Of a DNA stretch of 55,345 nt, positions 5,498 through 37,338 are shown one piece after another. Every line of letters begins with the position of its first letter. The stretch's first letter is position 1. This stretch comes from a virus. Lineage: Duplodnaviria > Caudoviricetes. Below the pieces are notes generated by a model, which made no database searches, was not told the origin of the DNA, and was given only the letters and a program-made list of their open reading frames with translations. Made by a program: the position numbers and the translations under genes. The stretch is taken from positions 1-55,345 of the IMG/VR virus record IMGVR_UViG_3300044971_001115; one strand, written 5' to 3'.

Positions 5498-7273
5498 TTG
5501 GGAATTTTTAAGAAAAACTCGGAGCCAGAAAAGCAGCGTAGATCCGCTCCTGGCGTTCGTGCGACTGCTCCAAGAACTGCAACCTCGGTAGCCCCTGGTA
5601 TCTCTGTAGACTCTTTTGGTTTGGTCTACGCTGAGCCTGCTGCCTTTGGCACTCCACGTGCTCTTACTGCTGCTGCAGCCCAACTTAAGATTGGTGACAA
5701 GGGCGAGGCCGAACTCTTTAAAGCTCGCCGCCAGTCTGCCTCCTCTAGCTGGCAGACCGAAGCCTGGGAATACTACGACTCAATTGGTGAAGTCAAGTAC
5801 GCCTTCAACCTTGTTGCGTCTGTTGTGTCTCGCATCCGTCTTTATGCTGCAATTGTTGAAGACCCAGCCGAAGCACCAATTCCAGTAGACAAGTCTTCTA
5901 AGATTGACCCGCAGCTTGGAGCCGCAGCTCAGCGTGCCCTTGCTCGCCTAGACAGTGCTTACGGAGGTCAGGCAGGTCTTCTCAAGGACGCTGCTCTGAA
6001 CTTGCAAGTTACTGGTGAATGCCACCTAGTCCAGATTCCAGAGCGAATTGGAACCGGATTGCCAGAGACCTGGGATATCCGTTCTGTTGACGAACTTCAG
6101 ATTGATGCAAAAGGTAACTTCGTTATCCAGCCACGTCGCGAAGTTGGTGGCGGTGTCCCTTCAGCCATGTCCGCTGGTAAGGGTGCAATCCGTCTACCAG
6201 GTGATGCTTTTATTGGCCGTATTTGGAAGGCCCACCCACGCTACTCACAAGAGGCTGACAGCTCGCTACGCGGCCTTTTGGACCTGTGTGCGGAATTGCT
6301 CCTACTGAACCGTACCTTCCGTGCCACGGCCCGTTCTCGCCTCAATGCGGGTGCTTTGTACCTGCCTGATGGTCTTTCGGTTGCAGCTAGCCCAGACCCA
6401 GACTATCCTTACGACGAGGATGGCAACTACAACGAGCAGTATAACCCTGAAGAGGCTGCTGACGACTTCGAAGACCAGCTCATCGACGCGATGACCACTC
6501 CGATTAAGGACGAGGACTCGGCGTCTGCTGTTGTTCCACTTATCATCCGTGGTCCTGCTGAACTTGGCGACAAGATTAAGCAGTTTAAGTTCGAGCGTTC
6601 ATTCGACGCGTCTCTTGTTCAGCGTGCTGACCGCGTGCTTGAGCGAATCATGCAGGGTCTTGATGTCCCTAAGGACATCGTTTCCGGTCTAGCCAACGTT
6701 AAGTACTCAAACGCACTTCAGATTGACGAGTCTCTTTACAAGGCCCACATCGAACCTCTGATGCTTCTGATTGTAGATGCGTTTACTGTTGTCTACCTAC
6801 GCCCTTACCTAATCGCTAACGGCTACCCAGAGGCTGACGTTCGCCGTCTTCACATCTGGTACGACCCAAGCCAGGTTGCTACTCGTAACGACCGTGCGAC
6901 AGATGCAGACGCTGGCTTCGACAAGATGGCTGTTTCTTACGACACATGGCGTCGTGCTCACGGCTTCTCGGACCAGGACGCTCCAACCCCTCAGGAGCTT
7001 GCACTTCGTCTAATCATCAACAAGGGTGCCATCACTCCAGAGCTAACCGAGGCTATGCTTTCGGCCGTAGCTCCAGAGATCATGGAACTTGTTAAAGACG
7101 TGTCTCAGGCAAACAACCCAGCTCCAATGCCTGGTAATATTGAAGATATACTTCAGGGAGGCCAGCCCGGTGCTGCTCCTGGAGCTCCTGTAGCTCCACC
7201 AGTTCCGCTGGCTGAACCTACACCTGCAGCTCCAGCTGCTCCACCTGTTCCACTAGCCGAGCCAGAGGTTTAA
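5498..7273 (+). CDS. Portal protein
   Basis: 591 aa after terL; WQTEAWEYYDSIGEVKY and IWKAHPR..ADS motifs resembling actinophage portals; TTG start with AGGAG RBS; Pro/Ala tail containing APPVPLAEP twice. Confidence 0.88.
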   Translation: MGIFKKNSEPEKQRRSAPGVRATAPRTATSVAPGISVDSFGLVYAEPAAFGTPRALTAAAAQLKIGDKGEAELFKARRQSASSSWQTEAWEYYDSIGEVKYAFNLVASVVSRIRLYAAIVEDPAEAPIPVDKSSKIDPQLGAAAQRALARLDSAYGGQAGLLKDAALNLQVTGECHLVQIPERIGTGLPETWDIRSVDELQIDAKGNFVIQPRREVGGGVPSAMSAGKGAIRLPGDAFIGRIWKAHPRYSQEADSSLRGLLDLCAELLLLNRTFRATARSRLNAGALYLPDGLSVAASPDPDYPYDEDGNYNEQYNPEEAADDFEDQLIDAMTTPIKDEDSASAVVPLIIRGPAELGDKIKQFKFERSFDASLVQRADRVLERIMQGLDVPKDIVSGLANVKYSNALQIDESLYKAHIEPLMLLIVDAFTVVYLRPYLIANGYPEADVRRLHIWYDPSQVATRNDRATDADAGFDKMAVSYDTWRRAHGFSDQDAPTPQELALRLIINKGAITPELTEAMLSAVAPEIMELVKDVSQANNPAPMPGNIEDILQGGQPGAAPGAPVAPPVPLAEPTPAAPAAPPVPLAEPEV

Positions 7274-7276
7274 TAG

Positions 7277-7729
7277 ATGCACGAGAATCATTTAGAACTA
7301 GCAGAGAAACTTTCTCACCTACTTGGTGACGTGGTCACTGTTGCTCACATTACTCAGGGCTACCACTGGAACGTAAAAGGTATCGAGTTCTCTCAGCTGC
7401 ACGAATTCTTTGCAGACATCTACGGAGACATCGACGGTTCAATTGACCCGCTAGCCGAGAACATTCGTAAGATTGGCTACGACAGCCCTTACCTACTTCA
7501 GGACTTCATCGAGCTTGGCTGCATTGACGAGCGTCGCGTAACTGGCAATGCTCAGGAGATGCTTACTTCTCTAGCTCGAATCAATGCCACCGTTATTAAT
7601 TGTCTAACCGGGGCGTTCCACTCTGCCGACGAGTGCGACGAACAGGGTATCGCTGATTTCCTAGCAGGCCGCATTGACATGCACAAGAAGTGGCAGTGGC
7701 AGATCGAATCTAGTCTCGGAATTCGATAA
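7277..7729 (+). CDS. dps: Dps-family mini-ferritin
   Basis: YHWNVKGIEFSQLHEFF, DPLAENIRKIG and HKKWQW motifs; ferroxidase H/H/D/E residues present. Confidence 0.92.
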   Translation: MHENHLELAEKLSHLLGDVVTVAHITQGYHWNVKGIEFSQLHEFFADIYGDIDGSIDPLAENIRKIGYDSPYLLQDFIELGCIDERRVTGNAQEMLTSLARINATVINCLTGAFHSADECDEQGIADFLAGRIDMHKKWQWQIESSLGIR

Positions 7730-7732
7730 GTC

Positions 7733-16700: not shown

Positions 16701-18712
16701 AAGATGTAGTCCCTGAAGCCCCTAAGGTAGAAGAAAACCCATACCTAGCAAAAAGTAGAGGCCCTATCCGTAATGAAAGGGATGCTGCTTATAGAGCCGG
16801 AATGGAAAAAGAGGCAAAATCAAAGCCAATAGTTTCTAGGTTGATGGAGCTTTTGAATTTAAATGTATCTGAAGTAACAGACATTCAGGATCAAATCAAT
16901 AAGGGCGACTGGAAACATGAAAACGGATCATACTCCGAGGCTAAATCCGGAGCCTTCTCGAAATACAACAAAATTCTTGTTGAATTTGGTGAATATGAGC
17001 CTAGTAGTTCTACATACCTAAAGAACGGCGAGACTGGTCTAGCCACTTGGTTGTCCGACGAACTAGGAATGGATATAAAAGATCTTGAGATTAAACAAAG
17101 AACATTAAAATCAGGATCAACTAGACCTACTCAAAAATTTGGATCACCAAAAACATTCAATTCAAGCCTCCGACCGCTACTAAACGGTGCAGACTATTAC
17201 TACGTAGATACAGATGCCCTGGCTTTCTATATTTACCCAAACGAGGACCTAAAAAAGGCCGTGCTAGAGCAGATAAAAAACGGTGACCTAACCTGGACAG
17301 GCGGAAAAGCTGGTAAAAGTGCTATGTCCGTATCTGTAGATAAGCCTAAGTACGCATTTAAATTGGAAACTAGTCCAGATCGTAAAACACGCACCTGGGT
17401 GTTCGACGGCACCGAAGAAAATAAGAAAGAATTTAAAGAGTATATAAAGAAAACATACAAGCAAGATCAGGGGTCTAAGGTAAAAGCCCCTAAGGGCTCT
17501 GACTTCAGTGCAATTGGCTATTCCAAGATGGACTCGATTAAAGACTTCCTAGATCCTGCAAACGGTGCCGTCCTTTCTATTGGAGATACAACAACTAATG
17601 AAGAAGGAAAGTCTGTCACTGTTGATGAGGACTTCTTCTTACCGAATAACTTTATAACCTACCAAGAACCTAGAGCTGTCCTCCGTAGGTTCGGATCTCT
17701 TGCAATCCCCCCGACTGACCAGGAGTCGCTCGACCCTGCAGAAGTGGCAGAGATGAAGTTCGACTGGATAGAAAAGAATAAAAGCAGGTTCATATATGCC
17801 AATTCAGCAAAAATCGAGGAGCTGGCACTAAAAAAGGCTGCTGAACTTGGGTACACCAGCCCTAGAGACAGAACTCTATACACGGAAGGAACCGTGCAGT
17901 CTGTGCTCAACTATGTGAATGCAGATAATAAAATTGTAGTTAGTGATTTCCTAGACTACGTATATAAAAACTACCCAGAGAAATATAAAAATACTGAAAG
18001 ATACGAACAACTTAAGAAATATTCAGAATTTGACTCTAAGTTAGATGCATATGCTAAGGATGTTGCAAAAGCAAACGTTACCGTAGCAATCGACGGTTTA
18101 GACCTGATTAGTGTATTAGAAGACGGACGACTTAAGAATCAGTTTGAAACCGGGACTAGTGGCGGGTCATATTTTCCAGATATAAGAATAAAAAACGAAT
18201 TAAATATCTCTGGCACCCCGATAGACGCCTCAAATGAAAAAAGACCTATTTTTGGACACCTAACTACATTTGAAGACTCAAAACTTCCTAAAGATCCTAG
18301 ATCTAAGAAGAACATCTTGCACGTGGCTAGCTCTTTCACTAAAGGATACGGATCCTTTAAAGTAATTATGAAATCTTCAGTTAAAGAAAGAACTACATTT
18401 ACAGCTGGAGACTCAATGGGCGGTAGTCAAATTGCTCAGGTGGTATCTCCAAATGTTGACCGAAAAGCTATGAAACTAGCCGGCTTTGTGGCAGACCCAT
18501 ATACTGCCCTAAACTACACTCCCGAGTCGGTAGCAGGGTACTATGTAGAAGCCCAGATCCACGGCGGAGTTAGTCTCTCCGACATCGAGAGAATCATTTA
18601 TGTAGGCGAGGACTCTGACGAGATATTACAACTTGTGAAAGCTAAGCTAGGAGAGCTAGGTCTAAGTATCCCACTTGAAATTCTTAAATTAGCTCAGGTA
18701 TCGAAGGAATAA
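7733..18712 (+). CDS. Giant polyvalent protein, 3659 aa: multiple ADP-ribosyltransferase domains, HipA/PI3K-like kinase, ParB/Srx domains, C-terminal DUF3626-like domain
   Basis: Three VIP2/Alt-like R-S-ExE domains (VFRG..REDEVVLPR; VYRG..FLSAS..EKEVIF; LYRG..FSSTT..EKEVLLP); Arr-like FYHAT..LKVGD; kinase FYVK..NE..WLANWD..DN..VDPGG; ParB EGHHR; KNQFETGTS..EAQIHGG. Confidence 0.88.
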   Translation: MSEYLRKILGAGKTPLIKSQPLAALTADAGPDIPGGEGANKGFWRKQLRDPRTKQFIPMDAFIICTINVPGVGIFKATGQFKGNKKIGIATIRVAGNKNVPDGDYQVPHTDVLGAAEGMIKQKDLDRVLDKADGVIDDPKNILPPGTPMAGESVKAPVALKKAIDGEEALSKIKGEAALVAKEDGRFPIARGAGDIKTAAKRQYAGVFEALKKEQPDLVKDFNSFDEFWAYADKNIAIDASQRWADSVDEIPELTKATNRIYARDVLGMEPDGLITFYRNSINHHNDPNKAAAGYISLDQRMAWNYNSDKEQSGQDGRYIVRVKPDEVLGLLGYSRVPDEYGVVVGMDVTSQEGRYERVGDLAWSPLNPLMDPTKTQMSGGGDSWFRQFRPASSFDFPVLDSKPFEAGESWSDFYKQFNMQKGDIPKKYDELFGEGAFDQDFPDSRGVPNYSRFVNNAFTEKGGKYAFDPLYLSTEFPMSSATSMEPNKNDELDLGLKFLSTIQELSGIPFMVHRSHDKSDPRLKVKEAKTKKPKAVKEAAKEVETPVGSVVKDLTGFTKVSDQLGSNKGGLYKDPITGQQFYVKFGDKARIENEALASDIYKLAGINATDLQIGTLDGKDVIYSPWIEGTSKDVKDKIIHLASTVNERETKTDPKIKASVEEAQRGFAVDAWLANWDAVGSAYDNLVFDKDGKPLRVDPGGALLYRARGELKGDAFGDEVTELDTFTQYSGTPLAGNTALELFRSMPRRRKFESAKIVHKITPEQIEQLVDSRISDPETRKVLKDRLIARRQNIIERFSLEGLVSDKQEKDGDSYVDKVYYDDIRRSEELMAPGGPGGPRISTDAGDTSGYLDRYFDDNAPLVDEVDGNDIKEILQATVVKDMVNTVNKEEGNDSSANEVFRRGLYGTLVAQHNIVYSELKSEDSDFANQFPTFNSYFKYVTEELAISDKLLVGDVNNSLASDYKKEAEHAQSWSTYFSPEKMALQKKINRKYAEKILKLNPDGKIRIYRNANSQVFKYDTPEAALAGYWSFDRNFAWAFNSNQTERSANRSSYAGRYSALISVNEITGIIGMMHVTDYETYKTDNVLDEMPLSILPNEVLRGVLSDQKYHGRTRDLTLQSGATPRVVQTMAAGTTQWRNNRTAPYVLFNPVPFNLDELKSKAKEKGIDLDNVIDPSNGKPRSLERFLTELPDGRHQIDLFGASDDNSYDLGIYGTDRMSDFQKLMYLQTQLDVPLIVNNFAKDADAHKVETDQFYGAADPMVQKLEPARIQKFITVPEPTLDPGAVLSEADLSAVKKKKDYLDTALDVSKQFTAGDNQAPFNMLDLAAKGRADVVNDYRQQIQDIYDVANAKVSADKEAVATKAADYIQSKIKSAKDSIFTYEQSLKNDPTAKDWAPGAIKDQEEIIAELESGYDRTTNPGHEPVKTRITDLADYYLQTYDPEGSIREKLFSGASEQEVVSALENTPLWKERKAAFEAAGGDTANEWDLVFSDNDSALAAVKSAFAKDSRLSDEENETNRKSALEELRNGGLPVDAPATEPVVETPAVEAPEVKTEALGWDSLGGPTEGRGESELLDNLVDGDFLDVEAIKDGDVPRNFDLDDLIEEQAKSVRYYKGAGFRYMNNLLRLGQSDEPDDLMDKLNKSIADVDELIDTYGDVYTETTVFRGMIDMGRFKETDPPTIVEILESAKPGDILSDPGYTAATTNRSIAIREYGLGRGLSDEVTINASQEQWVPTVFFAIKLPEGSKALGLPLDTNYGREDEVVLPRGAQLKINAIRRVPQVDADGEETGRFNYFVDAENIPSEESKEEPATGKQKNQLIRLYNNVESTEDKEAIFEAVKDENLTAARAKELLEADYSPKPAPEVPKEMAERFFNPKYGAGDSKTDVAMLPIDEVEKYIVQDRAGKDSWGASSDATIEKITEELKNGGSIRDPLVIDFDDENNWGALAEGHHRLIAARKAGLKYVPVRILRAQGRNVSFKNKGKGAPLTFSAGPDKFGYVPGAAHASLFDQFAEKKPETKVKKLGNEPNVKASDEKVDMLISKISRLKIEDVEKLKEAIKNGTLTNELADELSSKAPGSLDILNDPVMLKAILKKHVGDSVTADDMQDLVDGKRTQDGYGFYHATNRELKVGDIIRPTESFAASASHGGLSFDIKKEMSPEEWEKKRAFAKLDGGQGVKGLSFYIARAAEMKGEPDGMGYFYRVKPVGTLSAFPSLEPEWVTDEGWEIVHVVGRASINDTRVDDRIHFDEDTDTLWHDNPEEYNSPDYGKRKTDDIIDTSSGDMPVLNQIIKTESTNEVGKGNTTLSADFDYVSYRKFDSSYLDEDEIEAITEYRAGGYAQINELLRTARLRNSEVPEEKVQKWIDTLDSAIDTWGSPMGGSVRNVVYRGQVLSGGSAPEVGEADMTEVINRLSPGMILEDRGFLSASTSPTIAYKEFGPGLYERGAVKGDTVFWAINVPEDVKGLFSPQDIGIAAEKEVIFHRNSKLAIKGVRKIVGQDDHARYFIEADMLAPESELIPKTREESSESSPELAETLAEIAKNREEPESTEPPKSAENGPSIWGRINLRNIKDSFKYIADDPEFSDLVKQYSGSDEDIDKLKEILTEKGLNKKNEVSDPYSKFTSAAEKEYKKIDPNLDTETGIAPASPYGGIEDSGLGTTGYVDSSSVLDALGKDGWTFNNDDSARAAVKKRISEEGFTSPVVLIYDRGAKTFSLKNLEADSDRIIAAQDLKRSTPVVVEMGGMSSNPRFFGAMYTPKNLKPTEAIKEDYPDVSGIPDLPTPSRSKEEKDAIEAYQKWGFYDLKTHMDSPYGHPDKSKEEREDLDKVVDNLDKLTSTEPIPDGTTLYRGVDLSNDPEWYEYFSELKAGDRLLTPTRFSSTTLDPIIADEYSVPLSRIKTDPENTKSVVIKITTGEGATGAAFENDKTLFSREKEVLLPLTANIEVTKVEKDSDGVIRVEGVYSKTPKVEKQIEEGGGFTLTPDPEDVVPEAPKVEENPYLAKSRGPIRNERDAAYRAGMEKEAKSKPIVSRLMELLNLNVSEVTDIQDQINKGDWKHENGSYSEAKSGAFSKYNKILVEFGEYEPSSSTYLKNGETGLATWLSDELGMDIKDLEIKQRTLKSGSTRPTQKFGSPKTFNSSLRPLLNGADYYYVDTDALAFYIYPNEDLKKAVLEQIKNGDLTWTGGKAGKSAMSVSVDKPKYAFKLETSPDRKTRTWVFDGTEENKKEFKEYIKKTYKQDQGSKVKAPKGSDFSAIGYSKMDSIKDFLDPANGAVLSIGDTTTNEEGKSVTVDEDFFLPNNFITYQEPRAVLRRFGSLAIPPTDQESLDPAEVAEMKFDWIEKNKSRFIYANSAKIEELALKKAAELGYTSPRDRTLYTEGTVQSVLNYVNADNKIVVSDFLDYVYKNYPEKYKNTERYEQLKKYSEFDSKLDAYAKDVAKANVTVAIDGLDLISVLEDGRLKNQFETGTSGGSYFPDIRIKNELNISGTPIDASNEKRPIFGHLTTFEDSKLPKDPRSKKNILHVASSFTKGYGSFKVIMKSSVKERTTFTAGDSMGGSQIAQVVSPNVDRKAMKLAGFVADPYTALNYTPESVAGYYVEAQIHGGVSLSDIERIIYVGEDSDEILQLVKAKLGELGLSIPLEILKLAQVSKE

Positions 18713-18714
18713 AA

Positions 18715-18909: not shown

Positions 18910-18911
18910 GG

Positions 18912-18917: not shown

Positions 18918-18923
18918 AAGATA

Positions 18924-20870: not shown

Positions 20871-21691
20871 TGTCGAATCTAGAATTCACCTCTAAATTTC
20901 ACAAGCGGGTGTCAATGATGTTTGACTCCGAAAAAGCTAGTGAAGTTATAGACGAGTTTGACAATCTAGACCCTAGAGAAGCAAACATCTTCTACCGTGC
21001 ATTTACAGCCGAACCGGGTACACCCGAGCACCTACACTCTGTTACACGAGTTAAGGCACTTGTTGCTTCTGGTTTTGTTTCCAACGAGCTAGCAAGTATC
21101 ACCAATGATGGTGCGATTAGCTCTGCTCGCGAAGATGCCGAGCGTTCATACATGCTTTCCCGAGAGGCCCTACTTGACGTCATCTCTGACCAAAAAGTCA
21201 GCAATGATGTGCTTACTAATCCTTACGATGAAGATGGACTTCTATCTCGCATGGTTATCCGCGGGAACACTAAAGAAGAGATTCTCAACTACCTGAATAG
21301 CAAACTATTCTTCCAGGCAGCCAAAGAACTAGCCGAGGCTGGCCCAGATGAAGAAACCACACTAGCCGGTCAGGAAGCTATTCTTCGCTTTACTGGTCTC
21401 ATGGAGGCTATTGACAACCTAGAGGATCCAGTTGAGCCAGCTGACTTTAAGGCTAATGCTAAACAGTTGGTTGCTTCGTATGACGAAGACGGCACCATTG
21501 CGTCCATGATTGACAGCGGAGCGTCCTCTGACGAAATTCTAGAAGCTTTCTCGCAGAATGAAAAATGGTCGGATGACCTATATAACTACATCACTCGCTT
21601 AGAAGTGAATATTCGAACTGCAGCCCAGAAACAAAAGTGGGGCAATACAGAAGTAGTTTTGTATGCTCTAAAAGACCTAGACAGTCTATAG
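20870..21691 (+). CDS. Acidic helical protein with two YDEDG repeats
   Basis: TAATG overlap with the upstream gene; PYDEDGLL..G.TKEEIL and SYDEDGTI..GASSDEIL. Confidence 0.75.
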   Translation: MSNLEFTSKFHKRVSMMFDSEKASEVIDEFDNLDPREANIFYRAFTAEPGTPEHLHSVTRVKALVASGFVSNELASITNDGAISSAREDAERSYMLSREALLDVISDQKVSNDVLTNPYDEDGLLSRMVIRGNTKEEILNYLNSKLFFQAAKELAEAGPDEETTLAGQEAILRFTGLMEAIDNLEDPVEPADFKANAKQLVASYDEDGTIASMIDSGASSDEILEAFSQNEKWSDDLYNYITRLEVNIRTAAQKQKWGNTEVVLYALKDLDSL

Positions 21692-21781: not shown

Positions 21782-24700
21782 ATGTTAGAGAAACTCACTG
21801 CCCTCCTAGCCGCATTTAACGACGGTGCCAACAAAGGCTTCTGGCGTTTCCAGTGGCGTGACCGTCTTGGCCGTTGGGCCGAGATGGGCCGTGGTGTTCT
21901 TGGTAAGCTTCGTCTAAAAGATGGCTCGATCGTCTCTGTTCGTGGTGTGTTCGTCGGTGGTACCGAGAACCCTGGCTTTGGTCGCGTTCTAGTTGAAGGT
22001 CAGTCTGACAAAGGCATTCCAGACGGTATCTATAAGTTTGCTTCTGGTAACGGTGAAACATTTGAAGGTCTTATTCCTGAAGAAGACCTAATCCGTCAGG
22101 GCCTACTTCCTGAGGGAGGTGCCGCTAAGAAGGACATTTTTGGAAACTCTGTTGGCGAGCGTCTAGACAAAGACATCCAGGACTTAGAAACAATCAGTCG
22201 CGAAGACATTACCGACGAAGACCGCAAGCTTGCCACTGAAACTCCTGACGAGCGTCAGAAGGCCATCATCGAGGAAGAGCGTGCAAAGTCTCCTGTTGCT
22301 AAACTTCCTGCTGGTACAGAGTCTGACCCGGACCAGCTTGCCAAGGCTCTAGAAGATGCTGGTGTTACCCCTAAGGCCGAAACTCCTCCTAGTCCAAAGG
22401 TCGACCGTGCTACTGATGGTTGGCTTCGCGGAGCTCGGGAAGAGGGCGAGCCAATCTACTGGATGTCTTACAACCAGGGCACTGGAAAGCACAGCCTAAA
22501 CGAGGGTCACATCATTGATGGCTACGTTTATAAAGGTAAATACAACCAGTTCACTGACCAAGGCCTAGAGGGTGTTGGCAGTGTTGACGACCTAATTGCA
22601 ACTAGAAAAAATAAAAATTCTGGACTTGTAGACATTTATCGCGGAAACATTCCTGCTATCGAAGACGAGAATGGTAAGTTCCGTAAGGCAGAAACTAGCG
22701 ACATCTTTAGGATTGAACGCGAGCAGGATGCTGCTAAAGCTGCTCAGCCGCCTACTCCTCCTCCATCAGACAAGGTAGCCCCGGCTGCCCCTCCAGCAGG
22801 GCCTCCTTCAGATGGCGGCGAGAAGTTCCTACCTGCCCCTCCAGAGCCAGGTGCTCCTGCAGAGCCAAGCAAGGCTGAGATTCCACCTGCCCCTAGTGCA
22901 CTTGATGGTTTGGACCCTTACACCCGTGGCGTCGTATCCAACATTATTGACGGGGCTCAGGGTCAGACCCCCAAACAAATCAACAAAAGCCTGAAGAAGC
23001 TTCACGACCTGGCAAGCAAGCCGGACTCAAACCGAGACGGCCTAAAGGTCGCTATCGACGAGCTCTCTAAACTTGTAACAGACAAAGGTGGAGTTCCATT
23101 TGTTCCAGGCGGAGAAGACGAAAACAACTTCGGGTTCAAAGAAACTACTGACGACTTTGACAAGCAGAATGGCCAGCAACGCTGGGAGAAGGACTACGAA
23201 GGTGGTCAGACTCTTCTAGAGGTTGTCAAGGGTGACGACGGCACGTACGAAGCTATTGCATATAGTGGAAACGACAACGGTGCCTGGGCACGAGAAGACC
23301 TACTACCTGTTACAGACGGTAAGGGCATCTTTAAGGAAGCTGACAAGCTAATCAATGACAACATTGAAGCTGAAGCTAAAAACGATGCTCTAGTTGAAAA
23401 AGCTATCCAGGACGCAATGGACGGCAAGCCAGTTAGTGCTGACGAGATTATTAAGAAGAGTTCCCCTACTCCTGTAGGCCGAGGCGGCTTCAACTTCGAA
23501 GAAGATGAAGAGCAGCCAGCTACTGCACCTAAGACTTCTAAATCTAAGAAGAAGCCTGAAACAGAAACTACTTCTCCAGCGACTGCAAAAGGCCCTGTTA
23601 AGCAGGAACCTATCACTCCTGAAGAGCTTGATGCTCTAGCACCGGCCGAGTCCTATGAAAAGTTCTTTGGCTTCTTACCTAGCGTAGAGCAGACTCGAAT
23701 TCTAAACTCTATCATCGTTGCTAAAAAGAAGACAGCCGTTCGTGCAGGTGCAGGTGCAGGTAAGACTACAACCTATATCGGTCTTTGTAAAGCTCTTATG
23801 GAGCTTGACCCTAATGCTCGCATTGCTCTACTACAGCTTAACCGCACTAACGCTGACGAGGCTGCAAAGTTAGTTCCATCGAACACAATTTCAAACACTA
23901 TTGATGCATATTTTGGCCGTCCGCACATCGTAAATATGGCTGCAGGCAAGACCGGAACAATGCGTGGCTCGGCAAATGACCCGCATGTTACTCGTTACAT
24001 GTCTAGGGAGTCTTGGCACATTTCTGGTGCAAAAGACCTAGGCAATCACTTCCTAATGGATGAAATGAACATTGGTGGAGAGAACTACGACATTAGCAAG
24101 GTTGCGGGTCTAGTTAGTAATGCTGTAGAGCTTTTCTGCCGTAGTACTGATCAAAAAATTGGCCCTCAGCATTTTAACGTTAAGACTAAAGCTAAAAAAG
24201 CTACAAAGACTGAAAAAGCAGTTGAGTCTGAAGATGTAGATATTCCAGACGAGCAGATGAAGAAGCTTCTTAGCTATGCCAATGCTTACTGGGAAGATCT
24301 AAATCACATACCAATTTGGGATGAGCGAGTGTCTTTCACAAAGAAAGATGGAACCCCTGGTAAGAAGTTTGCTAAGGGTGTTACAGCAATTAATCCTACT
24401 CACGCCTTCAAGATGTGGGCACTGACCGATCCTGATCTATCGAAGTTAAAGGCTGGCGATGGCAAGCCAATTACCCACCTGCTTCTAGACGAGGCTCAGG
24501 ACACTAACGCTGTATTTGAAAAAGTTATTAAGGACAACATAGATCGAGGCACTGCTCCGCTTATCGCAATGGTTGGTGACCGTGCTCAGTCTATCTACAA
24601 GTTCCGTGGTAGCCGTGATGCCCTAACTACCTTTGCAGAGAAACGAGCTGGTGCAAGCCTAACTCTCACTACTACTCGACGCTTTGGTGAAGACCTACTT

Positions 24701-29710: not shown

Positions 29711-29711
29711 C

Positions 29712-30077: not shown

Positions 30078-30094
30078 AATTATATAAGGAAATC

Positions 30095-30433: not shown

Positions 30434-30438
30434 GTAGT

Positions 30439-33400
30439 ATGGCTGAATATTTAGGAAGTATCGGTAAACTGTCTCTGTTTGCCGTAGGCAACCACAGCGT
30501 TATCGTGGACACTGACCTCAACATGGTTACTGAGTTCGGTGCACTTTCTAACATTCAAAAAAGTGGATGGGCATTAGAAGAGTTTGTATCTGATGCAGCT
30601 CACGATCTGGCCTCTGCCGCTCTCTACGACACTGCTAACCCTATAATTGCATCAGCTGGTCGTATGTACACTATTCCAGACGGAGTTAAGAGCGAGGCCA
30701 AAAAGGCCCTGGAGTGGCGTAAAGAAGAGAAGCGTGGCGGAACTCCTGTCGGCATGAACACTGCTCGCACTCTCGCTAAGGGTGGACAGATCGGTATCGA
30801 GAAGGTACGCCACATTGCCAAGTATTTCCCTCGTCACGAAGTTGACAAGAAGGGTAAGGGCTGGAAGCCTGGCCAAGACAACTTCCCAAGCAACGGTCGT
30901 ATCGCGTGGGCACTCTGGGGTGGCGATGCCGCGTGGCGTTGGGCCTCTGACATTGTTGAAAGAGAAAACAAAAAGTCCATGACCGCTGGTGGATTTGTTG
31001 AGTTTGAGTCTTATGATGACGCATACTCGGACACTAATGCTTTCAAAGCAGCCCACGAATTAGATACCAACTACGGTCCAGAGTTCCTAGCACGCGTTCG
31101 CCTAGACGGCTCTGGAATCGATAGGCTTTACAAGATCGAGATTGACGGACATGTTTATGTCTGGGACGACTGCTCCTGGGACGACCTCAGCCATGTTGAT
31201 GGCGACATCTACACCTACGACTCCTCGCTTGACGACCCATATGATCAGGTTGAAAAAACCCACGTAATGATCGACCCTGACTCTGCAGTAATTATCTCTG
31301 CCATGATGCAAGAAGCCCCGTTCAAGAGCGTTCAGATCAACGAGATCGATTACGAAGAGTCCATGATGATGTCTAATGCCATGGCTGACCTAGACTACGA
31401 GATTCTAGACCGTGCCATTATGGCCGCTGGTGTTGCTGCAGTGGACCCGAGCAAGGATGGCAACTACACCCCTGAAGAGCGTGGCGAAAAGGCTGACAAG
31501 CAGCCACGCGATGCTGGAGGAAAGTTTGCTAAGGCCGGTAACAGAGTTGTAGTTGGTGGCGATACTAAGCGTGGCATTGGAACTATTACCAAGGTCGACA
31601 ACAAGAGCGGCAAAGTTGACGTAAAACTTGACGATGGTCGAGACATCACCGTTGACTCAAAGCTAACCAAAGCTTTCAAGCCAGGCGAAGAGCCTGCCCC
31701 TATGGCCCCTGCAATGGAGCAGCCTGTACCTAAAAAGAAGGTAGAGCCTGTCAGCACCGAAGGCATTCTAGGCGAACCTCGCAAGAAGACTAACGAACCT
31801 AAAGCAGAGCTATCCGAATCACCTGCACCTCTTACAAAGCCAGAGATTGACGAAATGTTCGTCGAATGGGCCGCGTCTGTGGTCTCTGCTCGTGCGGCTT
31901 CTAGCAAAGCTGTTACCGCTGCTGCCCCTGCACCAGCCACCGAAGAACCTCTCACCCCGAAAACAAGTGACGTAACTCCTAAGTACATTGCTATCGTATC
32001 TCCTGATGATCCTCAGGCCGTTATGGACCTAGTTGCTCTAGTTCCTGCCACAGCCACCACCACGGAGCCACTTATGTACATCCGTAAGGATGGCAAGTGG
32101 GTTGCAGACGAGCAAACACTTAAGGATCTAAAGTCAGCAACGCCTCCTCCTGTTGTGGTACTAGACACTCAGGAACTTCTTAACGACATCCTCAAGCAGG
32201 TTGACAAGATTGAGAACGTTGCTAGCACCCCTAGCAAAGAGAAGCCAACCGCTGAGACTCAGGCTGCAGCTTCAATCTACGAACACCTAATCAACTTCTG
32301 GTCTGGCTCTGCTCAGGCGATGGTTGCTGCTGGTGGCCTAGACCGCAACAGGGGCAACGCTGAAGAGCTACGCCAATACTGGACCCGCGGTAAAGGTGCT
32401 GCCAAGATTCGCTGGGGGACCCCTGGCGACTGGACTCGTTGCGTTCGTCAACTTTCAAAATACATGGGTCCTCGTGCGAAGGGCTACTGCCAGCTTCGCC
32501 ACAAGGAAGCAACTGGTGTTTACACTGGTAGCCGTTTCAACCCTGGTAAGGATGACAGTAGAAGTCTTACTACGTTCAATGACCGTTTTGAAGATGCAAT
32601 GATTGAAAAGTCATACTACGCTGCTGAAGTTGCATCGATCAAGGAACGTATGGGACTAACAGCCGCGGCACTTCCTATCGCGTCTGGTGCTAAGTTCACT
32701 ATCCCTCTTCTTATTCCAGAGGACCTCGAGTCTGGAGATGGACGTAAGTTTAAATCAGAGTCAATCGATGTACGTGACCTACCTCTTCCGCTTCTGTGGC
32801 AGATCAAGACTGGCGAAGGCCACATGGGCTCTGTTGTAGTTGGTCGCATTGACCACATGGAGCGTATCCCTAGCGGAATTGGCAATGCTTATGGCGTTTT
32901 CGACACCGGACCGTATGGCCGTGAAGCTGAGCGTCTAGTCCGTAATGGGTTTATCCGTGGCGTATCTGCAGACCTAGACCAATTCGAGGCTAAAGAAGTT
33001 GACTCGGAAAACGCTGAAGATAGCGAAGAAGTTAGCAAGCAAAAACTTACCATAAATCACGCACGTGTAATGGCTGCTACAATTGTAGCTAAGCCCGCAT
33101 TTCAAGAGTGTTCAATCATTATTACCGATGATGGAGACACTGGTATCCAGGAGGATCGAGTGATTCCTGCAGATGGAATTTACGAAGAGTCTGTCGAAAC
33201 TTTCGCACCCGCCGAAGCATTAACTGCTTCTGGCTTTCTAGACTCTGCCATTCCTGTGACCCCACCGGAGCACTGGTTCCACGACCCTAAGCTAACGAAG
33301 CCAACCCCTATTACGGTTGAGCCAGATGGCCGTATCTATGGACACATTGCTGCATGGCACGTAAACCACATTGGTATGCCTCGCTCGACTCGCCCGCCTC

Positions 33401-35166
33401 GCTCACGTAGCAAGTACCAGTACTTCCACACTGGTGTTTGCCGCACCGATTCAGGTAAAGACTATCCAGTTGGTCAGCTAACTCTTGCTGGCGGTCATGC
33501 TTCTCTACACGCAGACGCAGCACAGGCAGCTAAGCACTACGATGACACAGCTTCGGCTATTGCGGATGTTCACGCTGGTGAAGATCAGTACGGCATCTGG
33601 GTCTCTGGTTCAGTGAGGCCTGATGCCTCTGAGATGGATATCCGCAAGCTACGTGCTTCGGCTCCTTCTGGTGACTGGCGTCCAATCAACGGCTCTCTGG
33701 AACTTGTTGCTGTATGTCAGGTAAACGTTCCTGGCTTCCCTGTTGCTCGTGCCCTAGTTGCATCGGGTAAGGTATTTGCTCTTGTTGCTGCAGGTGCTAA
33801 CTACTTCGCTATGATGAGGAGCCAGCACGTTGTTTCGCTTGTAGAGCGTGCAGCAAAGCTAGGCGAACTAAGTGCTAGCTCGGCTGACCTGATGGAACGT
33901 TTTGAGACTCAGTTTGGTTACATTCCTCGTGCAAAGCGTGAAGACCTTGCCAAGTCTGGCGAGGCTATGAAGGACGGCTCGTTCCCTATCAAAAACGTAG
34001 AAGACCTCAAGAACGCTATTCAGGCTCATGGTCGTGCAAAAGATATTGCTGCTGCAAAGAAGCACATTATGAAGCGAGCCAGGGCACTTGGCAAGTGGAA
34101 GCTAGTTCCAGAGGAATGGAAGAACGCTAAGACTGTTACCGCCTCTGCTCAGGTTGATGACATGCGTGAGCGTGCTCTAGTTGCTTCTGCTGTTGCAGAA
34201 CTAGCCAAGATCAGCAACGAAGAGCGTGGAACCCTTGCTGAAAAGGGCTACGCTATGTCAGATGGTGCCTACCCAATCCGTAACACCGAAGACCTAAAGA
34301 ATGCTGTTAAGGCATTCGGTCGTGCAAAAGAATCTGAGCGTGCCGAAGTTCGCCGCCACATCATGAAGCGTGCTCGCCAGCTTAAGGCTGCTGATCTGAT
34401 TCCAGACCAGTGGAAGAGCTCGCACACTATGTCTATGGCAAACAGCAACCTAGAGCGTATGCGTGCAGTTGTTGCATCGCTTAGAAGTGAGTTTGCTGAT
34501 GAAGAAGAAGAAGCTCTTCCTACCGACGCAGACATTGAGCTACTAGCTAAAGCTAAATCTGAGGCAGACAAGCAGACCGCTGAAGAGGTCCAACGTGCAG
34601 AGGACATTGCTGCAGGTAAGACCACAGATGTACCTAACTACGATGAAGAAGGTCGCAGCAAGTACACCCCTAAGACTCAGCCGCGTGATGCTAAAGGTAA
34701 GTACCGCAAGGTTCTAGCTCGTCTACGTCAGGACCTCGGTGTTGCTGGTCTACAGAAGGCTCTCCTAAAGGTTCAGGATGCCGAAAACCTAGAGTTCGCC
34801 GGAAACTACGAAGCTTCTCAGAAAGCTAGCTCCGAGCTTCTAGGAATTATCGACCGCCTAGACACCAATGCTCTTAACCCACAGGCTCTAGAAAATGTAC
34901 AGAACTCAGCTCGCGAGCTTGGTCGAGTCATTTCTAACCTTCCACTACCTTTCGGTGCAGAAGCCGAAAAACTAAGATTTAGCGATCTACCTTCTGGGCT
35001 CAAGGACCTCATCGATCAGATGATTACTCGAGTCGAGTCGAAGATTGGTAAAGAGGACGCAGATATTGCAACTAAAGATCTAAAGTCCTACATGTCCGGA
35101 GCCGATGTTTACTCTCAGGGAGAAGTACAGTCCCAAATGAGTAAGCTCCTCCGACTCCTTACCTAA
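30439..35166 (+). CDS. Prohead (capsid maturation) protease polyprotein, 1575 aa
   Basis: Immediately upstream of the capsid gene. Protease-like domain ESGDGRKF..LPLPLLWQ..GH..VVGRI..GVSADLD..IVAKPAF; second domain GGHA..HYDDT..GEDQYGIW..SGDWR..VNVPGFP; two DUF6582-like repeats (GSFPIKN/GAYPIRN). Confidence 0.85.
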   Translation: MAEYLGSIGKLSLFAVGNHSVIVDTDLNMVTEFGALSNIQKSGWALEEFVSDAAHDLASAALYDTANPIIASAGRMYTIPDGVKSEAKKALEWRKEEKRGGTPVGMNTARTLAKGGQIGIEKVRHIAKYFPRHEVDKKGKGWKPGQDNFPSNGRIAWALWGGDAAWRWASDIVERENKKSMTAGGFVEFESYDDAYSDTNAFKAAHELDTNYGPEFLARVRLDGSGIDRLYKIEIDGHVYVWDDCSWDDLSHVDGDIYTYDSSLDDPYDQVEKTHVMIDPDSAVIISAMMQEAPFKSVQINEIDYEESMMMSNAMADLDYEILDRAIMAAGVAAVDPSKDGNYTPEERGEKADKQPRDAGGKFAKAGNRVVVGGDTKRGIGTITKVDNKSGKVDVKLDDGRDITVDSKLTKAFKPGEEPAPMAPAMEQPVPKKKVEPVSTEGILGEPRKKTNEPKAELSESPAPLTKPEIDEMFVEWAASVVSARAASSKAVTAAAPAPATEEPLTPKTSDVTPKYIAIVSPDDPQAVMDLVALVPATATTTEPLMYIRKDGKWVADEQTLKDLKSATPPPVVVLDTQELLNDILKQVDKIENVASTPSKEKPTAETQAAASIYEHLINFWSGSAQAMVAAGGLDRNRGNAEELRQYWTRGKGAAKIRWGTPGDWTRCVRQLSKYMGPRAKGYCQLRHKEATGVYTGSRFNPGKDDSRSLTTFNDRFEDAMIEKSYYAAEVASIKERMGLTAAALPIASGAKFTIPLLIPEDLESGDGRKFKSESIDVRDLPLPLLWQIKTGEGHMGSVVVGRIDHMERIPSGIGNAYGVFDTGPYGREAERLVRNGFIRGVSADLDQFEAKEVDSENAEDSEEVSKQKLTINHARVMAATIVAKPAFQECSIIITDDGDTGIQEDRVIPADGIYEESVETFAPAEALTASGFLDSAIPVTPPEHWFHDPKLTKPTPITVEPDGRIYGHIAAWHVNHIGMPRSTRPPRSRSKYQYFHTGVCRTDSGKDYPVGQLTLAGGHASLHADAAQAAKHYDDTASAIADVHAGEDQYGIWVSGSVRPDASEMDIRKLRASAPSGDWRPINGSLELVAVCQVNVPGFPVARALVASGKVFALVAAGANYFAMMRSQHVVSLVERAAKLGELSASSADLMERFETQFGYIPRAKREDLAKSGEAMKDGSFPIKNVEDLKNAIQAHGRAKDIAAAKKHIMKRARALGKWKLVPEEWKNAKTVTASAQVDDMRERALVASAVAELAKISNEERGTLAEKGYAMSDGAYPIRNTEDLKNAVKAFGRAKESERAEVRRHIMKRARQLKAADLIPDQWKSSHTMSMANSNLERMRAVVASLRSEFADEEEEALPTDADIELLAKAKSEADKQTAEEVQRAEDIAAGKTTDVPNYDEEGRSKYTPKTQPRDAKGKYRKVLARLRQDLGVAGLQKALLKVQDAENLEFAGNYEASQKASSELLGIIDRLDTNALNPQALENVQNSARELGRVISNLPLPFGAEAEKLRFSDLPSGLKDLIDQMITRVESKIGKEDADIATKDLKSYMSGADVYSQGEVQSQMSKLLRLLT

Positions 35167-35175
35167 AAAGTAAGG

Positions 35176-35181
35176 TAAAAT
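35176..35181 (+). promoter_or_regulatory. -10 element upstream of the major capsid gene
   Basis: taaggTAAAAT, similar to taaggTACAAT at 18907-18917; shares a 12-mer with the 21718 site. Confidence 0.55.
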
Positions 35182-35292
35182 TACTAATAGGTAGAGTGCC
35201 TTGCAACTTATGTTTGTGTAGTCCCTCGGCCTTGATTGTTCACCATGAATGGTAAAACATTCATCAAACCAAATACTGGCCTAGGAGGTACA

Positions 35293-37338
35293 GTGTACGA
35301 CCAAATTAAAACTCAGCTAGACACCATTGCTGAGCTAAGCGACGAACAAGTCGCAGAGCTACAGGGTGGAATCGTTGGCGAGTTCGAAAAGGTTGAGGGC
35401 GAAGAGCCTACTCCTGAGACAGTTGATGCTATGACGTCACTTGCTGACTCCCTAGACATCGTGCGTGGTGAGCTAGCTCGCCGAGAGGCACAAGCTGAAC
35501 AGCTTGCCGCCCAGGCTGCAGAAGCCACCGCACGTGTTAAGGGTGTAACTGAAGAGACATCTGGAGAGGAAATGGCTATGGATGAGCCTATGGAAGAGGA
35601 GACTCCTGTAGAGGAAGCTCCTATGGAAGAGGCCCCTGTCGTCGAAGAAACCGAAACTGCAATGGAAGAAGAAGAGGCTCCTATGATGGAAGCCCCTGAA
35701 TCTGAAGAAGCTCCAATGGATATGGAAGCTCCTGTTGAAGAAGAGGAATCACCAGCTGATGAAGCTGAAGACGCCAAAGAAGAGAAGAAGAAGTCCGAGA
35801 GCGAATTTAGCTCGGAATCTGAAGACTCCGCTCCAGCCGAGGAAGCAGTAGTAGTAGAGGAAGCAGTAGAACTTGCTGTTGAATCTGAGCCTGCCGCCGA
35901 AGCATCAACCACTCAGGTAGAAGGATCCGAACTTTCGACCGACGAAACAACTAATCAAGAAACATCTATTGAGCTAGAAGCTCAGGAAGAGCAGGCACCC
36001 GTGACCGCCGCAGCAGAACAGCCTTTCGAGGCCCCAGCTGACCGTCAGCCTGTAGTTCAGGTTTCGGAGGCAGCCCCAGTAGCAATTACTGCAGGTGCCG
36101 ACATTCCTGGTTACACCGCTGGCAGCACAATTGACAGCATGTACGACGTAGCTTCGGCTATGGAGAAGCGTATCCACTCGCTCCGTCGTGTTAACGGTGG
36201 AGATGGAGAGCAGCACATTGTTGCATCTGTCACCACTCAGTTCCCAGAGGATCGTATCCTCACATCCGACGCAGAGTCAAACGCACAGAAGATTGCAGCC
36301 GTTTCCGGCCCAGAGGCACTTGTTGCTTCGGGTGGTCACTCAGCTCCATTCGAAGTTAAGTATGACATCTTCAGCATTGGTTCGACATCAGTACGTCCAC
36401 TTCGTGACGCACTGCCTCGTTTCCAGGCTGACCGCGGCGGTATCCGTTACATCGTTCCACCTACGTTTGCTAACGTAACGTCGAACACCACCACCTATTC
36501 AGACGCTGTTGGCATCTGGACATCTGCAAATGACTCTGCTGAGACACCTAGCCCTGCGGCTAAGCTCTCGAAGACCATTGCTGCTGCTTCAGAAACCACA
36601 GCCCAGACTGACGCTGTAACCCTACAGCTACAGTTCGGTAACCTAATGACCCGTGCTTACCCAGAACTAATTGCTCGTCACAACGAGCTAGCTCTAGTTC
36701 AGCACGCTCGTGAGGCTGAAGAGAACCTAGTATCGAAGATTGCTTCGGCATCGACCGCTGTTACCACAACCAACCTAATTGGTTTTGGTCGCGACTTCCT
36801 AGTACAGGTACGTCGTGCAGCTGTTGCTTACCGTAGCCGCCACCGTCTAGACCCTAAGGCTCGCCTTAAGGCTGTAGTTCCTTTCTGGATCTACGAGGCA
36901 ATGGCTTCGGACTTGACCCTGAACATGCCTGGTGATGGTACCCTCGGTGTGTCTGAGTCTGAAATCAACGGCTACCTAGCTAACTCGAACGTAGACATCG
37001 TTCCAGTACTTGACAACACCTCGTCGTCACTTGCTGGCTCGTTCAACATGTTCCAGGACGCTGCAGCTCTAAACGAGTTCCCGGACACCTTCCGCTGGTT
37101 CCTATTCGCTGAAGGAACATTCTTGTTCCTAGACGGTGGAACTCTGGACCTTGGAATCATTCGTGACTCGACTCTTGTCGGCACAAACGATTACAAGATG
37201 TTCGTTGAAACCTTCGAAGGTTTGGCAAAGGTTGGTATCGAGTCACTCGCTATCACCTCGACCATCTCGATCAACGGTTCAGCTGCTGCACTACGCGACA
37301 CCACCGGCAACACTGCTGCCGCTACTATCGAGCTTTAA
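35293..37338 (+). CDS. Major capsid protein with a fused acidic N-terminal scaffold-like region
   Basis: Start reassigned to GTG 35293 behind GGAGG. Coiled coil then ~140 aa Glu-rich linker (EEAPM repeats); core RPLRDALPRFQADRGGIRY and FLFLDGGTLDLGIIRDSTL..NDYKMFVETFEG, resembling actinophage capsids. Confidence 0.9.
   Translation: MYDQIKTQLDTIAELSDEQVAELQGGIVGEFEKVEGEEPTPETVDAMTSLADSLDIVRGELARREAQAEQLAAQAAEATARVKGVTEETSGEEMAMDEPMEEETPVEEAPMEEAPVVEETETAMEEEEAPMMEAPESEEAPMDMEAPVEEEESPADEAEDAKEEKKKSESEFSSESEDSAPAEEAVVVEEAVELAVESEPAAEASTTQVEGSELSTDETTNQETSIELEAQEEQAPVTAAAEQPFEAPADRQPVVQVSEAAPVAITAGADIPGYTAGSTIDSMYDVASAMEKRIHSLRRVNGGDGEQHIVASVTTQFPEDRILTSDAESNAQKIAAVSGPEALVASGGHSAPFEVKYDIFSIGSTSVRPLRDALPRFQADRGGIRYIVPPTFANVTSNTTTYSDAVGIWTSANDSAETPSPAAKLSKTIAAASETTAQTDAVTLQLQFGNLMTRAYPELIARHNELALVQHAREAEENLVSKIASASTAVTTTNLIGFGRDFLVQVRRAAVAYRSRHRLDPKARLKAVVPFWIYEAMASDLTLNMPGDGTLGVSESEINGYLANSNVDIVPVLDNTSSSLAGSFNMFQDAAALNEFPDTFRWFLFAEGTFLFLDGGTLDLGIIRDSTLVGTNDYKMFVETFEGLAKVGIESLAITSTISINGSAAALRDTTGNTAAATIEL

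Follow-up and report, generated by a model that had tools for sequence, protein, structure and literature searches.

A candidate alanine-centred cleavage code in the head proteins of a tailed phage encoding a modular protease polyprotein

Proteolytic head maturation is textbook biology, and measured cleavage codes exist for few phages. In phage T4, the protease gp21 cuts after L/I-x-E, trimming the capsid protein and itself, and short N-terminal leaders of packaged proteins (the internal proteins and the ADP-ribosyltransferase Alt) are removed at the protease motif. In HK97, the capsid prodomain comprises about 100 amino acids (aa) and is cut after Lys103, and we know of no comparable sequence code for this phage. 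Here, we describe a short alanine-containing motif that recurs in the head proteins encoded in a single contig of 55,345 bases (IMG/VR virus record IMGVR_UViG_3300044971_001115; this whole stretch is hereafter called the window), where a tailed freshwater actinophage has its head and tail module. The motif is concentrated in a 1575-aa polyprotein with a predicted protease domain and recurs in the major capsid protein (MCP), and its distribution suggests that A-[LIVM]-[VTI]-A↓[AS]-[GA], where the arrow marks the presumed bond, is probably what the phage-encoded prohead serine protease recognises.

For phage SPN3US, mass spectrometry is reported to place the cuts of the protease gp245 after A-x-E; N-terminal propeptides of 20-254 residues are removed from a large number of head proteins, among them the portal, the MCP and ejection proteins, several motif copies serve as cut points within the long propeptides, and the protease cleaves itself (PMC10052503). 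Among herpesviruses, the pseudorabies virus (PrV) sites are given as YLQA-T and VQA-S, with Ala at P1 and a small residue at P1' (PMC4498786). An earlier note on this DNA, made from the letters alone, had taken as its premise that assemblin-fold proteases cut after Ala; going by these two sources, this stands for the herpesviruses and fails for the studied phage members. An N-terminal scaffold-like (delta) domain of HK97-type capsid proteins is removed after assembly, and for the delta domains of actinophages the authors of a structural survey state that the cleavage site cannot be predicted (bioRxiv 10.1101/2022.09.09.507160). The authors of a study of phage Rosebush suggested that its 71-kDa capsid protein is cleaved after assembly, without naming a site (bioRxiv 10.1101/2020.01.21.914465). 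A search of the literature on prohead-protease cleavage motifs, actinobacteriophage capsid maturation and Rosebush capsid cleavage found no description of this Ala code.

The motif was tested in the form [LIVM]-[TVIM]-A-[ASG], with the Ala numbered as P1, and its occurrence was compared with 2000 composition-preserving shuffles of each protein or protein group. The polyprotein (30439..35166, + strand), in which PHROG module matches and the motif matches delineate about 11 modules, has 13 matches against 2.0 expected, a count reached in 0/2000 shuffles. When shuffling was confined to blocks of 12, 20 or 40 residues, so that Ala-rich stretches stayed Ala-rich, the excess was intact (13 against 2.0-2.2 expected, with 0/3000 shuffles reaching 13), and the enrichment thus survives the correction for Ala content raised in the earlier note. 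Independent control motifs occurred at chance in the polyprotein (the reversed motif 3 times against 1.9 expected, the motif with Ala at position 2 not at all against 2.1); permuted controls such as A-x-x-[ASG] were enriched too, but overlap real sites and were discarded as non-independent.

Elsewhere in the head block, the excess is modest in the MCP (4 matches against 1.3 expected, P 0.04) and in a 273-aa protein (2 against 0.3, P 0.03), and the count-based enrichment rests on these two proteins and the polyprotein. The 648-aa protein (2 against 0.5, P 0.10) and the portal (2 against 0.8, P 0.19) follow, and in the two giant proteins, of 3659 and 2642 aa, the counts (3 against 2.5, not significant, and 0 against 2.0) are at or below chance, in line with the scarcity remarked on in the earlier note; for the portal, the 648-aa protein and the giant-protein N-termini, support comes from positional conservation and not from count. 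In the comparison of head with tail proteins proposed in that note, the 12 tail open reading frames (ORFs; 5713 aa) are not enriched (7 matches against 9.2), and the chance match that it named in the tail tube is present (AQVTAAALT). The six upstream ORFs have 2 matches against 1.1. Re-translation of the coordinates found every string quoted in the note in its place. Most fit the [ASG] class, with ALTADAG and ALTADA falling outside by virtue of Asp at P1', and the list of sites, right as far as it went, missed VMAA (33067), LVAA (33781) and VVAS (34468) in the polyprotein and IVAS (36217) in the MCP. Two matches in a conserved ORF of 116 aa that shortly precedes the portal region (4841-5191) look like chance, because most of its homologs lack them.

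A logo of 120 database polyproteins, one of which is the representative of the window's own cluster, extends the motif to A-[LIVM]-[VT]-A-[AS]-[GA]. This six-residue form, derived post hoc, matches 10 times in the window, seven times in the polyprotein and otherwise in the MCP, the portal and the 273-aa protein, and not at all in the remaining 14,244 aa of window proteins, including the 5713 aa of tail proteins. The same 120 polyproteins hold 1236 matches to the tested motif against 220 expected. The nearest named relatives of the phage are the Actinomycetia phage DSL-LC01 (a metagenome-assembled lake phage), the Microbacterium phages Pumpernickel, Cece, A3Wally, Zooman and Big4, and Arthrobacter phages such as Atuin; remoter relatives include Gordonia phages (GMA2, Sixama) and, at ~24% identity, the cluster B mycobacteriophages (~68 kb). 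The polyproteins of Pumpernickel (10 matches against 2.0 expected), Cece (14 against 2.4), A3Wally (16 against 2.3) and Zooman (17 against 2.3), as well as Atuin gp75 (4 against 0.65), GMA2 Orf12 (4 against 0.4) and Altwerkus (5 against 1.45), are all enriched; the relatives tested differ in composition, and their MCPs are enriched as well.

Conservation of the polyprotein sites was scored as the presence of the motif within 8 residues in those homologs that cover the position, with counts given as sequences. By this measure, each of the 13 sites is retained in 20-100% of covering homologs, compared with a mean of 3%, a 95th percentile of 20% and a maximum of 36% at 274 control positions. Residues 620-1260 were modelled with AlphaFold2 (AF2) from 58 sequences, at a mean predicted local distance difference test score (pLDDT) of 68, and form folded blocks with low-confidence segments between them. 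In the N-terminal part (all sites are on the + strand), IIA↓S with P1 at residue 71 (30643..30654) is retained in 62/81 homologs, and three homologs begin at the equivalent of M76, adjoining the site. MTA↓G at P1 183 (30979..30990; 27/87) adjoins an indel hot spot and a phrog_2859 match that ends at 180, and IMA↓A at P1 329 (31417..31428; 72/89) likewise adjoins a hot spot. VTA↓A at P1 494 (31912..31923) is retained in 4/16 homologs by the strict coverage rule and in 47/92 by column, with a 128-column insertion point just upstream, and MVA↓A at P1 630 (32320..32331; 60/114) is located in a low-pLDDT linker with large insertions at 620-629. LTA↓A at P1 742 (32656..32667; 109/118), within the low-pLDDT segment 736-748, immediately precedes the protease domain. 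The match VMA↓A at P1 879 (33067..33078) is inside the protease fold, and LTA↓S at P1 930 (33220..33231; 95/119) follows that domain, 5 residues past the low-pLDDT segment 899-925; the latter site is retained as SLVA↓G in GMA2 Orf12, where that module is a separate gene. Downstream, LVA↓S at P1 1108 (33754..33765; 93/119) lies in the low-pLDDT segment 1095-1114 and LVA↓A at P1 1117 (33781..33792; 119/119) 3 residues past it, followed by VTA↓S at P1 1235 (34135..34146; 8/40; low pLDDT), LVA↓S at P1 1249 (34177..34188; 84/113), with a 164-column insertion point just after, and VVA↓S at P1 1346 (34468..34479; 90/93), which precedes the conserved helical C-terminal part and has a 199-column insertion point just after. 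The sites at 1235 and 1249 are situated between tandem copies of a ~90-aa module (residues ~1155-1335, window 33900-34440) with the common pattern ...DG[SA][FY]PI[KR]N.EDLKNA...GRA...HI.KRAR...P..WK.

The supposition of the earlier note that most of the motifs fall between modules is borne out in that they mostly occupy linkers or indel hot spots. Eight of the 13 sites are at most 10 residues from a hot spot, with hot-spot positions making up 26% of the protein (binomial P 0.008), and in the polyprotein alignment large insertions of relatives adjoin sites at 487-491, 620-629, 729-749, 1250-1251 and 1348-1357. Within the AF2 model, 5/8 sites are inside segments of pLDDT <50, which amount to 21% of the model, and those at 930 and 1117 are within 5 residues of such a segment. 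PHROG module matches (78-180, 638-700, 750-1144 and 940-1138) start 6-15 residues after sites (78 after 72, 638 after 631, 750 after 743, 940 after 931); Pfam gave no match at E 0.01 or better for the whole polyprotein. An argument from gene splits was found to be weak and was set aside, given that the start of most short homologs falls within modules that the window lacks and that a start beside a site is seen in just three. In DSL-LC01 (L001, OQ999401), the annotation gives the polyprotein as three successive coding sequences of 603, 851 and 183 aa, each named 'capsid maturation protease' (33804-38723), the borders of which do not map cleanly to motif sites; frameshifts or assembly errors are possible in this metagenome-assembled genome.

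A predicted protease domain of the assemblin/T4 gp21 fold was located at residues 749-899 (32683..33135, + strand). Fold matching was performed with VIA-align, both by re-scoring a Foldseek list and by searching 48,161 representative chains, and the protease matches appeared in both. Residues 749-885/899 (130-266/280 of the model) match T4 gp21 (5jbl) with Z 10.1 and a root-mean-square deviation of 2.4 over 115 aligned residues; next come the herpesvirus proteases, namely those of varicella-zoster virus (VZV; Z 9.4), PrV (8.8-9.1) and human cytomegalovirus (7.1-7.9), and those of Kaposi's sarcoma-associated herpesvirus, herpes simplex virus and Epstein-Barr virus (6-8). Unrelated rows in the representative-chain search reached Z 5.8 at most. 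Foldseek alone, run on the 641-residue polyprotein model, gave weak rows only and no match at E 0.001 or better. Neither H795 nor S843 varies among the aligned sequences (58/58), and the two residues are the candidate catalytic pair. The domain is bordered by LTA↓A (742↓743) and LTA↓S (930↓931), which is the layout expected of a protease that frees itself, as herpesvirus pUL26 is described to do at its R site (PMC4498786).

The MCP (700 aa; 35236..37338, + strand; phrog_777 'major head protein', E 6.5e-77) belongs to a very large family, with 3201 relatives at E 1e-5 or better in a word-indexed search of metagenomes and 2001 clusters at E 0.001 or better in a representative library. Its conservation profile and the AF2 secondary structure, the latter taken from a poor model (41-sequence alignment, mean pLDDT 47.5), indicate a coiled coil at residues 20-102, an acidic and poorly conserved linker to ~245, a conserved stretch at 246-364 and the core from 365 onwards. 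All four motif matches lie within residues 256-365. Three of these, VTA↓A (P1 258), ITA↓G (P1 286) and IVA↓S (P1 330), located in the putative prodomain (36001..36228, + strand), are present in 110, 127 and 124 of 127 close relatives and in 41, 95 and 67, respectively, of a diverse set of 151 sequences (the window plus 150 representatives sharing no more than 50% identity pairwise). The fourth, LVAS (36319..36330, + strand), is the proposed maturation site, E-A-L-V-A364↓S365-G-G-H-S-A-P-F, with the motif retained in 127/127 close relatives and 137/151 diverse sequences. At this site, the diverse set has Ala364 in 147/147 non-gap sequences, L/I/V/M at P3 in 145, V/T/I at P2 in 142 and A/S/G at P1' in 144. 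The site is kept in GMA2 (QALVASGGY), in the cluster B1 phage Altwerkus (SLIAAGGW) and in Dori (TLVAAGGW), where it is the sole motif match in an MCP of 627 residues.

In the poor MCP model, a long helix (476-505) starts 112 residues after S365, and the spine helix of HK97 is found at about that spacing from the mature N-terminus. Among the 146/151 diverse sequences that possess the site with 100 or more residues preceding it, 342 matches occur upstream, with the site itself left out, against 64.9 expected (5.3-fold), and 87 occur downstream against 86.5 (1.0-fold). Enrichment confined to the upstream part is what would be expected if a propeptide were cleaved repeatedly, which is how long propeptides behave in SPN3US by the published measurements (PMC10052503). 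Given the conservation of A364, the upstream-only enrichment and the HK97-like helix spacing, SGGHSAPF, as predicted in the earlier note, is the best candidate for the mature N-terminus, with a predicted product of 336 residues; across the family, the predicted N-terminus is [AS]-G-G-x-C/S-A-P. Residue 369 (36340-36342), the fourth after the proposed cut, is Cys in 129/147 diverse members and Ser in the window (G-G-x-C-A-P vs G-G-H-S-A-P). The motif is followed by D-I-P-G both in the MCP prodomain (A-I-T-A-G-A-D-I-P-G, 36085-36120) and in the leader of the 3659-aa protein (A-L-T-A-D-A-G-P-D-I-P-G, 7805-7840), and these are the only D-I-P-G strings among the window proteins.

In the portal protein (591 aa; 5498..7273, + strand; phrog_776, E 8e-104), the site LTA↓A (R-A-L-T-A↓A-A-A-Q, P1 58; 5663..5674, + strand) comes after a variable leader of ~50 aa. 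The motif R-x-L-T-A↓A-A is found at the aligned place in 75/75 portals (the window and 74 IMG/VR relatives); the leader upstream varies in residues and length, and the motif and the downstream core are conserved. A second portal match, AFNLVAS, is inside the conserved core and is probably structural. The 273-aa protein (20870-21691) has the strict six-residue motif at LVA↓S (K-A-L-V-A↓S-G-F, P1 66; 21059..21070, + strand), which is kept in the 70%-identical protein of relative L018; a second match, at residue 200, is not. The 648-aa protein (18924..20870, + strand), identified by a DUF5824 domain at residues 454-549 (PF19141, E 1e-7), has ITA↓S at P1 62 (19101..19112, + strand), which appears as KKTITASSYF in L018, the sole relative aligning from the N-terminus, and LTAD with Asp at P1' (19479-19490, + strand). 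Its further site IVA↓S at P1 564 (20607..20618, + strand) is 15 residues past DUF5824 and 84 before the C-terminus; in the corresponding linker of the family, the flanks are variable and the motif is present in 16/20 sequences, with aliphatic-x-A↓[AS] variants in the other four.

The two giant proteins have motif-like strings at their N-termini. The 3659-aa protein (7733..18712, + strand) includes an ADP-ribosyltransferase domain (PF03496, E 1.4e-42; phrog_802) and is presumed to be packaged cargo; its leader has LTA↓D at P1 27 (7805..7816, + strand), and aliphatic-[TV]-A occupies the same place in 3/3 relatives that align from residue 1. In the 2642-aa protein with a UvrD-type helicase (21782-29710), the N-terminal LTA↓L (21794..21805, + strand) is motif-like and outside the class, and relatives have [LIV]-[TV]-A-[GA]-I-G-F. 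Both proteins have in common an N-terminal domain starting with G-A-N-K-G-F-W-R-x-Q-x-R-D (7805-7870 and 21800-21860), which heads proteins of 912 to 2819 aa in relatives. Across this domain family, a like site is located 6-10 residues before the domain (8/14 in the strict class, 12/14 with a relaxed P1'), and the leader is short, begins M-S-x-Y-L... and ends in aliphatic-[TV]-A. Because the motif is at or below chance inside them, the giant proteins look like cargo with a removable leader and not like polyproteins. An M-x-E-Y-L start is common to the polyprotein (MAEYLG..., 30439-30470) and the 3659-aa protein (MSEYLRK..., 7733-7790); polyprotein homologs often start M[VIA]EYLG, and relatives of the giant protein MS[DN]YL or MSYLDKF. 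Starts of this type may constitute a common loading signal.

Comparison of relatives revealed exchange of modules around the sites. The polyprotein homologs range from 931 to 2215 residues, and in three of them (P0199, P0233 and P0236) the ferritin-like and DUF5824 modules, which are separate genes in the window, are fused into the polyprotein. The fused ferritin-like module has V-[TV]-A↓D-A-F-Y immediately before it; on its C-terminal side, P0233 and P0236 have only an A-L-V-A↓E variant and P0199 lacks a match. Upstream of DUF5824, the joint of P0233 and P0236 reads LTA↓G or LTA↓S and that of P0199 has no match, and the joint between DUF5824 and the protease is a match in P0199 (MIA↓G) and just outside the class in P0233 and P0236 (ILA↓G). 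In GMA2, each module has its own gene, and a match is retained 16-22 residues from the N-terminus of Orf11, of Orf12 and of Orf13. The ferritin/Dps-like gene of the window (7277-7729; PF00210), directly after the portal gene, has no motif; a ferritin-like capsid cargo would be unusual.

From this distribution, we infer both cleavage and an order of events. Co-assembly of the procapsid would bring together the polyprotein, the portal, the cargo proteins and the capsid protein, the last still bearing its prodomain of 364 residues; the protease would then free itself at 742↓743 and 930↓931 and cut the polyprotein at the other linker sites into modules of ~100-230 residues, with P1' of the recognition site apparently looser at some places (G, D). 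The capsid prodomain would be diced at 258, 286 and 330, and the mature protein would be released at A364↓S365. In addition, the portal would lose ~58 residues, and short leaders would be removed from four further proteins, namely those of 273 and 648 aa and the two giants with the ADP-ribosyltransferase and the helicase. The idea of the earlier note that maturation cuts the motif-bearing proteins into units thus finds computational support as a prediction for the polyprotein and does not extend to the two giants, which have the motif only in a short N-terminal leader and would not be diced. Every computational test able to refute the cleavage-code reading came out in its favour. A broader reading, which we offer tentatively and hold to be somewhat doubtful as a whole, would make the polyprotein a modular cargo carrier, in which a self-cleaving assemblin-fold protease backbone would acquire swappable modules (ferritin/Dps-like, DUF5824 and others) through A-aliphatic-[VT]-A↓[AS] joints, carry these modules into the procapsid and release them there. 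The same code, following a shared leader (M-x-E/D-Y-L...), might trim giant ejected enzymes (the 3659-aa ADP-ribosyltransferase and the 2642-aa helicase), and one code might predict the mature virion proteome, including the capsid N-terminus, from uncultured freshwater actinophages to cluster B mycobacteriophages.

A number of observations weigh against the motif being a cleavage code of this protease. Those phage proteases of the assemblin fold whose measured specificity is reported cut after Glu and not after Ala (PMC10052503). The Pfam Peptidase_S78 profile matches residues 824-895 at E 0.0084 and 16.7 bits, below the gathering cut-off of 21, and phmmer searches of the PDB with the polyprotein, as well as PDB searches with the MCP (phmmer and a 44-sequence profile), found no solved relative; nor can the start of the HK97 fold be placed in the MCP, because the AF2 model is too poor (pLDDT 47.5). 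The match at P1 879 is probably not a cut site because it is within a predicted strand (870-883, pLDDT ~76-81) of the protease fold itself. Since P1' varies (A, S, G and D, with E, F or L at some aligned places), the motif class is fuzzy and was partly refined after the data had been seen, and homolog counts are not independent events because relatives share sites by descent. By count, there is no enrichment in the portal, in the 648-aa protein or in either giant protein. The chance-level counts of the portal and the giants, along with the shortness of the motif, the 7 matches in tail proteins and the unconserved ones in the 116-aa upstream ORF, suit an explanation by chance or composition, in which Ala-rich linkers and shared descent would have produced the pattern without any function. 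That explanation is scarcely credible in view of the 13 matches against ~2 in the polyprotein under both global and block shuffles, the behaviour of the reversed and Ala-at-position-2 controls, the 20-100% retention at sites compared with the 3% mean of control positions and the 5.3-fold upstream against 1.0-fold downstream enrichment in the MCP family.

The motif might instead remain uncut and serve as a conserved docking or structural element, a capsid-targeting tag in the form of a short strand or a helix cap where modules meet, by which head proteins would bind the scaffold, the capsid interior or the protease. Conservation in the MCP cannot separate a cut site from a structural element, because both sides of the bond (A-[LI]-[VT]-A-[AS]-G-G-x-C-A-P) and the whole of 246-400 are conserved; in the polyprotein, the sites at 1108 and 1117 sit in an invariant stretch, and the matches near the N-termini of the separately encoded modules Orf11-13 of GMA2 would also be natural for a tag. 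Such an element would leave unexplained why the motif appears in variable, indel-rich, low-confidence linkers in which only four to six residues are kept, why the MCP has several copies in the prodomain and no excess in the mature part, and why the protease domain itself is flanked by it; moreover, the 71-kDa Rosebush homolog of the MCP is thought by its authors to be cleaved after assembly (bioRxiv 10.1101/2020.01.21.914465). We regard an uncut motif as unlikely. Two unrelated cleavage systems, signal peptidase acting at A-x-A and the removal of double-glycine leaders, were rejected, since the proteins lack signal peptides, G-G is missing from most sites and no C39 peptidase was observed. It is also improbable that the motif is cut by another enzyme, either a second domain of the polyprotein or a host protease, with the assemblin-fold domain being inactive or otherwise employed. 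The second domain, at residues 931-1125 (window 33229-33813), shows very strong conservation, and several of its His, Ser and Asp residues do not vary; the profile phrog_18402, named 'head maturation protease', covers residues 940-1138 and not 749-899, and GMA2 Orf12, labelled head maturation protease in NC_070761, aligns only to 911-1141, with no counterpart of 749-899 found by blastp among GMA2 Orf10-14. Yet residues 931-1125 match no Pfam family even at E up to 10, and there is no profile similarity to 749-899 (hhalign probability 0.1, with shallow profiles of Neff ~2), which leaves a by-eye impression of an HK97-protease-like domain unsupported. No fold match for this domain or the helical parts was present in the lists, which were filled by the first domain, so that the fold of the second was barely tested. 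Residues 749-899, on the other hand, have the fold, the invariant His and Ser and sites on both flanks, and cleavage by this domain accordingly remains the preferred reading.

The head genes follow the order large terminase (TerL, 3441-4844), portal (5498), polyprotein (30439) and MCP (35236), and thus the protease gene lies between the portal and capsid genes. Two small ORFs are located between 29710 and 30439, ahead of the polyprotein gene, and the tail genes start at 37433.

If the predicted cleavage is correct, mature N-termini could be assigned across a family of 2001 representative clusters, including the cluster B mycobacteriophages, which can be grown on a laboratory strain, and a phage protease would have herpesvirus-like Ala specificity. 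The loading and in-capsid release of swappable cargo modules and giant enzymes would also be accounted for. Furthermore, the capsid N-terminus, held to be unpredictable by the authors of the actinophage survey (bioRxiv 10.1101/2022.09.09.507160), would become predictable for actinophages with long prodomains.

Set against the described systems, the window protease resembles the herpesvirus pUL26/pUL26.5 system (MEROPS S21; R and M sites) in its fold, with VZV at Z 9.4, and, like pUL26, is part of a longer assembly protein from which it would free itself, the protease being the N-terminal part in pUL26. The window motif, with its invariant Ala followed by A/S/G and its position on the flanks of the protease domain, is consistent with a specificity of the herpesvirus type, the bond being our inference. 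It differs in that P2 is Val or Thr and not polar and P4 is Ala; the phage carrier comprises ~11 modules with 12-13 candidate sites, compared with two sites in the herpesvirus protein; the catalytic residues are probably His and Ser of the phage type, in place of Ser-His-His; and the phage capsid protein itself carries a scaffold-like prodomain. T4 gp21 (MEROPS S77) is the best fold match (5jbl, Z 10.1), and in T4, too, the protease motif ends short leaders on packaged proteins, an ADP-ribosyltransferase included; unlike the window phage, T4 has Glu at P1, separate genes in place of a polyprotein and the scaffold as a separate protein. SPN3US gp245 and phiKZ gp175 (A/S/G-x-E sites) provide a parallel in the concentration of motif copies in the propeptide with no excess in the mature MCP, and differ in having Glu at P1, where the window phage has Ala by prediction only, and in lacking a polyprotein carrier. 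With HK97, where the protease is gp4 (Pfam Peptidase_S78), the window shares the gene order portal, protease, capsid, along with the weak, sub-threshold S78 profile match. The N-terminal scaffold-like domain of the MCP, whose removal is predicted, would correspond to the delta domain of HK97 gp5, although the 364 aa of the window prodomain exceed the ~100 of HK97. The predicted process is thus of the kind known from T4, phiKZ, SPN3US, HK97 and the herpesviruses, and differs in the predicted Ala at P1 and in the use of one modular carrier with a dozen joints and exchangeable cargo.

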